This document shows positions 1-3,000 of a DNA stretch of 64,000 nucleotides, piece after piece. The stretch lies in assembly GCF_057098645.1 (NCBI RefSeq), contig NZ_CM169472.1, one strand, 5' to 3'. Position 1 is the stretch's first letter; the number at the start of each line of letters is the position of its first letter. The position numbers are program-made.

Positions 1-3000
1 TTTCGTCAGAGTAAATAACAAAATTCGGCAAGCGCGTTTAAAAGGTGAGGTAGATCACTAAGAATGGAGAGATATTCGCTGTGGTGCATAAACTTTCATA
101 TGCAACGCATGAATATAAATAAAATAATATCGAGATATTATATAGACTGCTTTTTTTTATTATTCGCAAACTCAGTAATAAGCTTTACTAATATATTGCA
201 GCCAAACCGCTTACCCTGAATATTCAGGGTAAGCGTGAGAGTTAAAAAAGAATTACAGCGGTTGGGTTTGCGCTTCAACCACGGCCAGCGCCACCATGTT
301 GACGATACGACGTACCGATGCGATCGGCGTTAACACGTGAACCGGTTTCGCCACGCCCATCAGCACCGGACCGACAGTCACACCTTCCGAGCTGGAAACG
401 CGCAGTAAGTTGTAACTAATGCGGGCAGCTTCCATGTTTGGCATTACCAGAATATTGGCGGAACCTTTCAAAGGGCTGTCCGGCATACGGTCGTTGCGAA
501 TCGCTTCCACCAGCGCTGCATCGCCGTGCATTTCACCATCAATCATCAGTTCTGGCGCACGTTCCCTGACCAGTTCCAGCGCCTGACGCATTTTGCTCGA
601 CGACGGGCAGTCAGAAGAACCAAAGTTGGAGTGCGACAACAGAGCAACGCGCGGCTCAATACCAAAACGACGGACAGTTTCTGCCGCCATCAAGGTGATC
701 TCCGCCAGCTCTTCTGCATCCGGTTCATCATTAACATATGTATCGGCAATAAAGGTGTTACCACTCGGCAGCAGCAGCGCGTTCATTGCACCTGCGGTGT
801 GAACGCCATCGCGATAACCAAAGACATTTTTCACCACGCTAAAATGTTCATGATAATCGCCCACCGTACCGCAGATCATTGCATCGGCTTCCCCACGCTG
901 AACCATGATCGCGCCGATCACTGTCGGGTTACTGATCAGCGCACGCTGCGCCTGTTCCTGAGTGACACCGCGACGCTTCATGATCTGGAAGTATTCGGTC
1001 CAGTACTCTTTAAAGCGCGGATCGGATTCGTTATTGACGATCTCAAAATCAACGCCCGATTTGATCTGCAAGCCCAGTTTCTGAATGCGCATTTCGATCA
1101 CGTTCGGACGACCGATAAGGATCGGTTTCGCCAGTCCCAGCGTTACCAGTTCCTGAGTGGCATGCAGAACGCGCGCCTCTTCCCCTTCCGGCAGAACTAC
1201 GCGCTTCGGCGCTTTGCGAGCCTGGGAGAAAATCGGCTTCATAAACAGGTTGGTTTTGTAAACGAACTCAGTCAGCTTGTCGATGTAGACGTCGAAATCA
1301 GCAATCGGACGCGTCGCCACGCCCGACTCCATCGCCGCTTTCGCGACCGCAGGAGCGATCTTAACGATCAAGCGCGGATCAAACGGTTTTGGAATGATGT
1401 ATTCCGGACCAAAGCTCAGATCCTGATCGCCATACGCTGAAGCCACCACTTCGCTCTGTTCCGCATGGGCCAGTTCTGCAATCGCGCGTACCGCCGCCAG
1501 TTTCATCTCTTCGTTGATGGCGGTTGCGCCAACGTCCAGCGCGCCACGGAAGATGAACGGAAAGCAAAGGACGTTGTTGACCTGGTTTGGATAGTCAGAA
1601 CGACCGGTGCAGATGATGGCATCCGGACGCACTTCTTTCGCCAGCGGCGGCAGAATTTCCGGTTCCGGGTTCGCCAGCGCCAGGATCATTGGCGCTCGAG
1701 CCATTTTCTTCACCATTTCCTGGGTCAGCACTTTCGGGCCGGAACAGCCGAGGAAAATATCCGCGCCTTCAATCACATCATCGAGGGTACGTTTGCCGTC
1801 ATCCACTACCGCATATGCGGCTTTGGTTTCCGCCATGTTTGGCTCACGGCCCTGATAGATAACGCCTTTTGAATCGCAAACCACGATGTTATGTTTTTGC
1901 AGACCCAGCGCTACCAGCAGGTTCATACAGGCGATTGCTGCAGCACCCGCGCCGGAAACCACCATACGCACGTCAGAGATGTTTTTCTCCACCACGCGCA
2001 AGCCGTTGAGGATGGCGGCAGTGCTGATAATTGCCGTGCCGTGCTGATCGTCGTGGAATACCGGAATATTCATCCGCTCGCGCAGTTTCTGTTCAATATA
2101 GAAACATTCTGGCGCTTTAATGTCTTCGAGGTTGATGCCGCCGAAGGTCGGTTCGAGCGCAGCGACGACTTCAATAAATTTGTCCGGGTCGAGTTCATCA
2201 ACTTCAATGTCAAATACATCAATTCCGGCGAATTTCTTAAACAGAACGCCCTTGCCTTCCATCACCGGTTTGCCCGCCAGCGCGCCAATGTTGCCTAACC
2301 CCAGCACCGCCGTACCGTTAGAGATCACCGCCACCAGGTTACCGCGCGCGGTATATTTGTAGGCTTTTAACGGGTCTTTTTCGATTTCAAGACAAGGTGC
2401 GGCAACGCCTGGTGAGTAGGCCAGCGCCAGATCGCGCTGCGTTGCCAGAGGCTTGGTTGGAGAAACCTGGATTTTCCCTGGAACTGGAAATTCATGGAAA
2501 TCAAGTGCACTTTGTTTTAACTGGTCATCCATTTGGTTGTTCCTTTCACGTAACGTTCACAAATAAAGTGTGTGGGCAACAGCCCCTGCCCACAACGTGG
2601 CGCACATTATTACCTTGCCGGAGTCTATAGACTTTGAGCAAGTCCAAACTCTCACCATTAATATAATGTTTTGGTAATAATCCTATAACACTGATGTTAC
2701 CTGCTTAATCCAGCAATACCATGCCTGTCTGCTATGCTTTTTTGATGCGTTTAGCGAAATTTCTCAGAAGTGTGAATTAACGCACTCATCTAACACTTTA
2801 CTTTTCAAGGAGTATTTCCTATGAACGAGTTAGACGGCATCAAACAGTTCACCACTGTCGTGGCAGACAGCGGCGATATTGAGTCCATTCGCCATTATCA
2901 TCCCCAGGATGCCACCACCAATCCTTCGCTGTTACTCAAGGCTGCCGGATTATCACAATATGAGCATTTAATAGACGATGCTATCGCCTGGGGTAAAAAA

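Follow-up and report, generated by a model that had tools for sequence, protein, structure and literature searches.

What ends transcription of maeB in Escherichia coli, and what part is played by the perfect palindrome that lies just beyond its stop codon, in the spacer leading to the eut operon? The window examined here is a single stretch of 64,000 nucleotides (NCBI RefSeq assembly GCF_057098645.1, contig NZ_CM169472.1), in which maeB runs on the minus strand toward the left edge. An initial reading made from the sequence alone had noted the palindrome and considered that it may bind a protein or act in RNA stability instead of being a simple intrinsic terminator, and it named 3'-end mapping of maeB transcripts as one way to check this. 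We brought together the sequence, its variation within and beyond Escherichia, and published transcript maps of strain K-12.

A single, highly stable palindrome follows maeB

Positions 208-235 of the window read CGCTTACCCTGAATATTCAGGGTAAGCG. This is a perfect palindrome of 28 bp, centered on AATATT and with arms of 14 nt. The sequence and the position of the open reading frame confirm the sequence-only reading in placing this inverted repeat at the maeB 3' end: on the maeB transcript it begins 17 nt 3' of the stop codon. No other perfect inverted repeat in the 64-kb window is as long (arm of 14 nt, against a longest arm of 8 to 11 nt in 30 block-shuffles), and the palindrome stays single in the window even when up to three mismatches are allowed, with none expected from the shuffles. 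The eutS start lies about 41 bp past the left window edge; the palindrome is therefore located inside the 293-bp maeB-eutS spacer, approximately 250 bp upstream of eutS and upstream of the eut operon promoter. The features of this region are collected in Table 1.

Table 1. Features between maeB and the left edge of the window
Feature	Position	Strand	Basis
maeB CDS (NADP-dependent malic enzyme, 759 aa); stop codon 253-255	253..2532	-	ORF list and RefSeq annotation of the identical O145:H28 RM12761 locus
U-rich spacer UUCUUUUUUAACUCUCA, 17 nt, maeB stop codon to hairpin	236..252	-	sequence
Palindrome, putative maeB mRNA 3'-terminal stem-loop (5' arm 224-235, loop 220-223 [AUAU], 3' arm 208-219)	208..235	-	fold, K-12 3' terminus, Escherichia conservation
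U-poor tail GUUUGGCUG	199..207	-	sequence
AT-rich filler, 122 bp, 27% GC	77..198	.	composition; replaced by glycosyltransferase island in some E. coli
C-rich, G-poor stretch, plausible Rho-loading region	15..74	- (maeB/eut strand)	C12/G3 and C11/G5 per 40 nt; overlaps eut promoter region

As RNA on the maeB strand, the palindrome is predicted to form a 12-bp stem capped by a loop of 4 nt. The hairpin alone reaches -20.4 kcal/mol, and it dominates the minimum free energy (MFE) fold of its 83-nt context (-25.4 kcal/mol, z = -4.0).

The element did not resolve into any repeat or RNA family that we searched. It occurs at one locus per E. coli genome, at maeB only (the two hits are the self-match on both strands), and a second copy was found neither in the window nor in E. 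coli genomes. This single copy number, together with the lack of resemblance to the REP consensus, excludes a REP/BIME repeat. An Rfam 15 scan of window positions 1-500 at E ≤ 10 returned sub-threshold matches only, the best being rli38 (25.3 bits, E = 0.25; the gathering score of the family is 49). A degenerate stem pattern searched over metagenomes and viral contigs recovered E. coli maeB loci plus unrelated hairpins with other loops, at about chance level.

The tail is U-poor and polymorphic

An intrinsic terminator combines a stable stem-loop soon after the gene end with a U-rich tract of 7 to 8 nt after the stem. The first is present, as a 12-bp stem 17 nt past the stop codon; the second is lacking in the tail GUUUGGCUG, which on the maeB strand has 4 U in its first 8 nt, a longest U run of 3, an nT value of 1.56, and a d score of -18.1. 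A consensus terminator scan over window positions 1-600 found no terminator. These values bear out the earlier judgment that the maeB transcript carries no convincing U-tract. With a score of the d'Aubenton-Carafa type, E. coli alleles range from -10 to -43, all below the terminator threshold, compared with +55 for Citrobacter and +30 for Salmonella. A-rich stretches often precede intrinsic terminators; the spacer at 236-252 is U-rich and contains none.

At least five tail alleles occur in E. coli (GUUUGG, GUUUAG, AGUUUAG, GUUUUC, and GUCCAG). K-12 has an 11-bp stem followed by AGUUUAGCUG, and one E. coli allele, GUCCAGCUG, has only 2 U in 8. In most alleles UUU directly follows the stem, and the tails of E. 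whittamii and Escherichia sp. MOD1 read AUUUUUAUAUU and GUUUUAUU, respectively.

Variation in the stem is suggestive of a function as RNA

Both between Escherichia species and among thousands of E. coli genomes, the stem is kept far better than its flanks; the 5' spacer and the tail vary freely. Internal stem changes within Escherichia are all C>U or A>G, producing G·U pairs on the maeB strand only. In the sense orientation, 97.7% of cells are paired across the variants and four pairs vary by wobble, whereas in the antisense orientation four pairs break; for Escherichia sp. MOD1, the corresponding fold energies are -21.8 (sense) and -9.5 (antisense). No stem pair showed a compensatory two-sided change among the Escherichia variants, for which the shuffle control was uninformative owing to too little variation, and the count of four sense-compatible changes versus one antisense-compatible change is not statistically significant. 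The wobble asymmetry is thus suggestive, and may favor an RNA function on the maeB strand. The loop differs in both sequence and length (AUAU, UUA, UAA, and UUUAUU); Escherichia sp. MOD1 and E. whittamii have one extra loop nucleotide, which alters the spacing of the halves. In roughly one in four E. coli genomes, among them K-12, the outer position is asymmetric.

maeB transcripts end at the hairpin in K-12, and a Rho signal lies downstream

The proposed check by 3'-end mapping is answered by published K-12 maps, which put the maeB end at the hairpin. On the K-12 minus strand, Bar et al. 2023 (PMC10687069) report a maeB terminus classed as "Primary", with a peak at 2576046-2576055 and a dominant position of 2576046 or 2576048. 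LB RNAtag-seq gives this terminus a signal of 1.0 (rank 34), and two further data sets give 0.989 and 0.967; because this signal goes to 0 at full read-through, a value of about 1.0 means that almost no RNA extends beyond (PMC10687069). The fold that these authors give at the maeB terminus shows this same hairpin, with a maximum U run of 3. In their 3'UTR-versus-CDS analysis, which we consulted with regard to a 3'UTR-derived small RNA, maeB is not flagged as an outlier. The maeB 3' end is absent from the Term-seq tables of Adams et al. 2021, and the TERMITe supplements have no maeB entry.

With the K-12 maeB coding sequence ending at 2576098 and the stem at 2576055, the dominant 3' ends fall 7 to 9 nt past the stem base. 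This distance fits true intrinsic termination and exonuclease trimming alike, since trimming would look identical. The mapped ends belong to the K-12 allele; by homology, those of the window allele would be expected at about positions 200-202 (peak 200-209).

Supplementary file 2 of Adams et al. 2021 (PMC7815308) places a Rho termination region at K-12 2575860 on the minus strand (Rho score 5.5, p = 1.5e-13), where upstream/downstream reads were 161/21 in untreated cells and 195/140 with bicyclomycin. The downstream/upstream ratio thus reaches 0.72 with the drug. The coordinate corresponds to about window position 14, which is 186 nt downstream of the hairpin and near the eut promoter. The first 120 nt past the hairpin are A/T-rich with few C residues, and a C12/G3 patch follows at 125 to 185 nt, just upstream of the Rho coordinate. 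The C-rich stretch overlaps the eut promoter region TTAGTGATC..ACCTTTTAAA..GCCGAATTTTGTTATTTAC, which is conserved across genera (Citrobacter, Klebsiella, and others). The bicyclomycin effect was measured in 800-nt windows and its peak lies so near the eut promoter that it may reflect transcripts started in the spacer rather than maeB read-through; a SELEX peak of the sigma-S holoenzyme has been reported in the AT-rich maeB-eutS spacer (PMC5493296).

The maeB terminator has been replaced in Escherichia

In other genera that have eutS after maeB, a canonical terminator, GGCGCGGG..CCCGCGCC followed by T5-7, stands about 20 nt past the maeB stop codon. This GC-rich, U-tailed terminator is found in Citrobacter, the Klebsiella oxytoca group, Salmonella, Yokenella, and Pseudocitrobacter, and the Escherichia palindrome sequence was not found outside Escherichia. 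From these comparisons, the ancestral GC-rich terminator has been replaced in the Escherichia lineage. The locus is a clean natural example of terminator turnover, and the U-tail varies within Escherichia, being decent in E. whittamii but nearly absent in some E. coli.

In 91 of 5,426 E. coli genomes, a 2.2-kb island of two glycosyltransferase genes, convergent with maeB, takes the place of window positions 77-198. The stop codon of the last island gene is 3 nt from the hairpin, which in these strains is thus between convergent genes. Homology common to island-bearing and island-free alleles spans the hairpin plus 9 nt, into that stop codon. We also considered whether positions 77-198 are a deletion remnant of the island and rejected it: similarity to the 5' noncoding region of the island is not significant, with 50 of 500 shuffles scoring as high.

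A proposed protective mRNA end backed by Rho, and its alternatives

Taken together, these data make it probable that the palindrome acts as RNA and not as DNA, forming a U-poor stem-loop that defines and protects the maeB mRNA end, with Rho-dependent termination downstream. The hairpin would be at best a leaky intrinsic terminator because its tail is U-poor, with possibly some intrinsic termination. Polymerases that pass it would be halted by Rho within the next ~200 nt, at the C-rich/G-poor patch before the eutS start, and 3'-to-5' exonucleases (PNPase and RNase II) would trim the maeB RNA back to the hairpin, which would in this manner set and protect the mRNA end. Hairpin and Rho together would prevent the constitutive transcription of maeB from entering eut, an inducible operon. 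Of the possibilities raised by the sequence-only reading, an RNA stability element in preference to a simple intrinsic terminator is the one that fared well: the K-12 ends fall just past the stem, the classical score is failed, and a Rho region lies 186 nt downstream.

The same 3' ends could also arise if the hairpin were a self-sufficient intrinsic terminator, its 12-bp stem and proximal UUU perhaps helped by NusA or NusG, and if the downstream bicyclomycin signal came from other transcripts. The ends at the canonical 7 to 9 nt with a signal of about 1.0 agree with this, as do the three U residues next to the stem in most alleles (and the E. whittamii and MOD1 tails), the intrinsic terminator that relatives have in the equivalent slot, and the offset of the Rho coordinate toward the eut promoter in a spacer with a sigma-S RNA polymerase SELEX peak. 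We nevertheless regard it as unlikely. The d score is far under the threshold in every E. coli allele, the consensus scan is negative, and an upstream A-tract is missing. Moreover, no part of the element is more polymorphic than the tail, which in the GUCCAGCUG allele is down to 2 U in 8; this argues against selection on a U-tract. A downstream/upstream ratio of 0.72 with bicyclomycin would be hard to reach if most maeB transcription ended at the hairpin. A different elaboration accepts the U-poor hairpin with Rho and gives it a regulatory role: the swap from a canonical terminator would make the barrier between maeB and eut conditional, such that lowered Rho activity or stress would let maeB transcription read through into eutS and beyond, priming eut without EutR, ethanolamine, or B12, while the polymorphic tail would tune the leak between lineages. 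We consider this very doubtful.

An operator for a dimeric transcription factor controlling eut or maeB could also take the form of a perfect DNA palindrome placed, as here, between genes and ahead of a regulated operon. The half-sites of the palindrome, CTGAAT and ATTCAG, may loosely resemble half-sites of the LacI/GalR type, such as those of Cra. LacI-family sites typically have a central CG, however, and a Cra/LacI-family site is rejected here as improbable, as the palindrome lacks that CG and its halves would stand 2 bp too close together. Conservation is likewise not that of an operator, in which both half-sites and their spacing would be kept in DNA: variants alter one half only, in ways that break the DNA symmetry but retain maeB-strand RNA pairing, half spacing shifts by 1 nt in two species, and the outer position is often asymmetric. 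The eut promoter region is conserved from genus to genus, but the palindrome is confined to Escherichia. It also lies just 17 nt past a stop codon, with the conserved core of the eut promoter ~190 bp away. No binding site at the palindrome is reported in the literature searched, including that on EutR and the eutS promoter. The protein-binding alternative of the sequence-only reading is thus not supported, and we give it almost no credence. It is highly improbable, too, that the hairpin is a functionless relic that came with the convergent island, or served as its terminal hairpin, and has not yet decayed in island-free strains. The proximity of the last island stop codon, the position between convergent genes, the homology shared by both kinds of alleles up to that stop codon, and the disappearance of the ancestral GC-rich terminator from Escherichia would all suit such an origin. 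A relic, however, would not be expected to have a stem far better conserved than both flanks with wobble-compatible changes only, nor to be the place where maeB transcripts end; the island is present in few genomes; and on the island strand the hairpin is followed by UGAGAGUUAAAAAAG, which contains no U-tract, so that it would be no better a terminator in that direction.

Under the protective stem-loop reading, the element would set where the maeB transcription unit ends and account for the separation of maeB and eut in E. coli. Beyond annotation its importance is small, and the element is an ordinary one; the sole mildly notable point is the Escherichia terminator replacement beside a polymorphic two-gene glycosyltransferase island. 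For eut or maeB engineering, or insertion into the spacer, it should be borne in mind that the hairpin is present and probably leaky on its own.

Relation to known systems

Although not a REP/BIME repeat, the element resembles that class in being an extragenic palindrome at a gene 3' end, able to stabilize upstream mRNA, and REP-like elements are found at the maeB 3' flank in Enterobacter, Raoultella, and Kosakonia. With bidirectional terminators, such as the ypfM-side hairpin at window positions 14885-14916, it shares a perfect hairpin and, in island-bearing strains, a location between convergent genes. In those terminators an A-run precedes the stem and a T-run follows it, giving a hairpin plus U-tract on both strands, whereas the maeB palindrome has a U-run before the stem on the maeB strand and a U-tract after the stem on neither. 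The intrinsic terminator of relatives matches it in position, in neighbors (the eut promoter follows), and presumably in its job of ending maeB and insulating eut. The two are unrelated in sequence, however: the Escherichia stem is longer, with a G+C content of 50% versus about 90%, and its U-tract is degenerate (nT of 0.6 to 2.0 versus 4.2 to 5.3; score below 0 versus +30 to +58).

The closest counterpart is the class in which stem-loops poor in U protect Rho-dependent 3' ends (Dar & Sorek 2018, PMC6061677). The maeB case differs in that its Rho coordinate is 186 nt away and possibly belongs to other transcripts, and in that A and T, not C, predominate over the first 120 nt past the hairpin. 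It agrees with the class in having a stable stem-loop just before a precise steady-state 3' end, with low U content after the stem and no A-tract before it, and perhaps in the bicyclomycin-sensitive transcription and C>G region downstream of the hairpin. A transition between intrinsic and Rho-dependent ends, as the comparison with relatives suggests for maeB, is of the kind proposed by Dar & Sorek.

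Palindrome downstream of maeB

The palindrome downstream of maeB is real and non-random but belongs to a known and ordinary type of element; it is best read as encoding the stem-loop that ends the maeB mRNA. Over its first 600 bases the window is 100% identical to E. coli O145:H28 RM12761 and 95 to 99% identical to nearly all of 5,426 complete E. coli genomes. The sequence confirms the perfect 28-bp repeat that the sequence-only reading had placed at the maeB 3' end. It has no second copy in the window at up to 3 mismatches and is the longest perfect inverted repeat of the 64 kb, its arm being 14 nt versus 8 to 11 nt in block-shuffles. 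On the maeB transcript it begins 17 nt after the stop codon. The annotation has eutS, which opens the ethanolamine-utilisation operon, starting 41 bp past the left window edge in the orientation of maeB, so the palindrome lies inside the 293-bp maeB-eutS spacer. The predicted RNA structure is a stem of 12 bp closed by an AUAU loop, with a folding energy of -25.4 kcal/mol for the 83-nt context (z = -4.0). The tail directly after the stem is GUUUGGCUG, and a consensus terminator scan made no call at the hairpin; the earlier remark on a weak U-tract was correct.

Positions of the maeB palindrome and associated features (window coordinates; those of L088 refer to that locus)
Feature	Coordinates	Strand	Description
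maeB	253-2532	-	759-aa ORF
Palindrome	208-235		CGCTTACCCTGAATATTCAGGGTAAGCG; perfect, 28 bp
Filler	77-198		122 bp, AT-rich, 27% GC
Region of the Rho coordinate and the C-rich, G-poor patch	1-74		K-12 2575860-2575920; eutS 5' region
Long perfect hairpin	14885-14916		
Long perfect hairpin	56562-56589		
Long perfect hairpin	52331-52359		
Long perfect hairpin	21034-21060		
Long perfect hairpin	45875-45899		
Island copy, locus L088	2555-4782		NZ_CP019029.1
Island copy, locus L089			NZ_LR898874.1

Hairpins in the maeB 3' flank of other genera

The first 110 nt past the maeB stop codon were inspected in 80 Enterobacteriaceae species. Among the non-Escherichia genera sampled, eutS follows maeB in Citrobacter, the Klebsiella oxytoca group, Yokenella, Pseudocitrobacter, and Salmonella; the synteny is kept in some genera only. 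These genera carry a textbook intrinsic terminator roughly 20 nt past the stop (GGCGCGGG-loop-CCCGCGCC, then 5 to 7 T), directly followed in most of them by a conserved eut promoter region (TTAGTGATC..ACCTTTTAAA..GCCGAATTTTGTTATTTAC). Where maeB has other neighbors, the slot is occupied by REP-like palindromes or CCCTCTCCC/GGGAGAGGG repeats: REP-like GCCGGATAAGCG palindromes in Enterobacter, Raoultella, and Kosakonia, and CCCTCACCCTAACCCTCTCCC/GGGAGAGGG elements in Enterobacter, Leclercia, and Lelliottia. The CGCTTACCCTG...CAGGGTAAGCG hairpin is restricted to Escherichia (E. coli, Escherichia sp. MOD1-EC7003, E. whittamii, and one divergent "E. coli"). With a d'Aubenton-Carafa-type discriminant, in an implementation of our own, terminators of the other genera score +30 to +58, all E. 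coli alleles -10 to -43, and E. whittamii -3.5. Some hairpin was thus always present across the Enterobacteriaceae sampled, of unrelated kinds; its sequence is not conserved across genera, and the pattern points to a generic RNA-end function rather than a sequence-specific site.

Salmonella enterica subsp. diarizonae and arizonae keep the canonical terminator and carry an AT-rich insertion, ATAATAATCATTTATATAATTTATTATAATGATATTT, between it and the eut promoter, 45 to 110 nt past the maeB stop. This insertion is unrelated to the Escherichia filler, and the spacer seems to be a recurrent acquisition site for AT-rich DNA.

Variation within Escherichia and a neighboring island

Variation was surveyed in E. 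coli genomes across the identity range, other Escherichia species, and 55 metagenome E. coli contigs. The perfect 28-bp form occurs in some two thirds to three quarters of E. coli; in K-12 and about a quarter of strains the outermost G is A, leaving a 26-bp palindrome and an 11-bp stem. Internal stem changes are all C>U or A>G and create a G·U pair when read on the maeB strand but not on the other. LR-31-type strains have C7>U; Escherichia sp. MOD1, E. whittamii, and MSB1_4I share a CGGGG right arm, and Escherichia sp. MOD1 carries two more changes. Pairing holds in 97.7% of cells on the maeB strand, with wobble variation at four pairs that are broken on the opposite strand; fold energies are -21.8 sense versus -9.5 antisense in Escherichia sp. 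MOD1 and -20.7 versus -16.3 in E. whittamii. The loop varies in sequence and length (AUAU, UUA, UAA, UUUAUU), so the distance between the palindrome halves is not fixed. Divergence is much faster in the 17-nt spacer preceding the stem and in the tail than in the stem itself, with at least 5 tail alleles within E. coli (GUUUGG, GUUUAG, AGUUUAG, GUUUUC, GUCCAG). This pattern is what would be predicted for an RNA hairpin on the maeB transcript and not for the operator of a dimeric protein. The strand argument is suggestive only, since 4 sense-compatible changes versus 1 antisense-compatible change is not statistically significant; double compensatory changes were absent among the stem variants compared. 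In E. coli 19AR0656 (NZ_CM132277.1), an IS1B element lies immediately 3' of maeB, and the hairpin, entire spacer, eutS, and start of eutP are removed, so that maeB has neither the hairpin nor an intact eut operon start.

In 91 of the 5,426 genomes, the filler is replaced by a 2.2-kb island of two genes convergent with maeB, encoding a GT4 glycosyltransferase and a GINT1_N-domain protein ("glucosamine inositolphosphorylceramide transferase family"); of its copies, 84 are nearly identical and the remaining 7 are 90 to 95% diverged. The stop codon of its last gene is 3 nt from the hairpin, and homology between island-bearing and island-free alleles extends through the hairpin plus 9 nt. In the divergent lineage MSB1_4I, island and hairpin have both diverged. 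These comparisons suggest that the Escherichia hairpin arose as the spacer was remodeled and the ancestral GC-rich terminator lost. Similarity between the filler and the non-coding end of the island was not significant; the island event may have been an insertion or a deletion.

Mapped maeB 3' ends and Rho-dependent termination

In K-12, a "Primary" maeB 3' terminus has been mapped on the - strand, with a peak at 2576046 to 2576055 and a dominant position of 2576046 or 2576048 (Bar et al. 2023, PMC10687069). Its signal, a measure that tends to 0 at full read-through, reached 1.0 (rank 34) for LB RNAtag-seq, with values of 0.989 and 0.967 in a further two datasets, and the fold predicted there, with a longest U run of 3, is exactly the maeB hairpin (PMC10687069). 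The K-12 CDS ends at 2576098 and the last paired base is 2576055; the 3'-end mapping that had been proposed as a check therefore puts the dominant ends 7 to 9 nt past the stem. As maeB has no 3'UTR outlier flag (PMC10687069), nothing indicates a 3'UTR-derived sRNA.

The maeB 3' end is absent from the Term-seq tables of Adams et al. 2021 (PMC7815308). Their bicyclomycin experiment gives a Rho termination region at K-12 2575860, - strand (upstream/downstream reads of 161/21 untreated and 195/140 treated; Rho score 5.5, p = 1.5e-13). This coordinate lies 186 nt past the end of the hairpin, 55 nt short of the eutS ATG, and immediately follows a C-rich, G-poor patch (C12/G3 per 40 nt) that overlaps the cross-genus conserved eut promoter region. 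Read-through from maeB, spurious transcripts of the spacer, or premature termination within the eutS leader could each underlie the signal; because it was computed over 800-nt windows, it could stem from transcripts starting in the AT-rich spacer, for which a SELEX peak of the sigma-S holoenzyme is on record (PMC5493296).

Proposed role of the hairpin

The fold, its position, the K-12 ends, and the conservation pattern are established. We consider it probable that the hairpin marks the maeB 3' end with weak intrinsic activity and acts together with Rho. The hairpin alone would terminate poorly, Rho would halt any polymerases running past it ahead of or near the eutS start, and exonucleases would trim the RNA back to the stem, so that the hairpin would set and protect the mRNA end and help to insulate the eut operon. 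The share of termination achieved by the hairpin itself is the chief uncertainty. An intrinsic terminator sufficient on its own would account for a 3' end 7 to 9 nt past the stem as well as trimming does, and spacer-initiated transcripts could supply the bicyclomycin signal; with every E. coli allele scoring negatively by the d'Aubenton-Carafa-type discriminant, we regard it as unlikely.

The sequence-only reading had offered a protein-binding site or an RNA stability element rather than a simple intrinsic terminator. The latter was the better half. The former found no support: the hairpin sequence is not conserved across genera, the spacing of its halves varies, and variants keep pairing on the maeB strand only, which makes a DNA operator very improbable. 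A functionless relic is given an equally slight chance.

The maeB terminus and its predicted fold are already in published genome-wide tables (PMC10687069), and overall interest is low; only the lineage-specific swap of a canonical terminator for a U-poor hairpin beside a polymorphic island is mildly notable. Rho-dependent E. coli transcripts end precisely past stable stem-loops that lack U tracts and shield RNA from PNPase and RNase II, and terminators have been proposed to switch between the intrinsic and Rho-dependent modes via U content (Dar & Sorek 2018, PMC6061677). Two other long hairpins in the window have A-runs and T-runs within the palindrome in the style of bidirectional terminators, AAAAAGGCGACA..TGTCGCCTTTTT, which coincides with the mapped ypfM 3' terminus in K-12, and AAAACCCTCTG..CAGAGGGTTTT; the maeB hairpin, by contrast, is U-poor.
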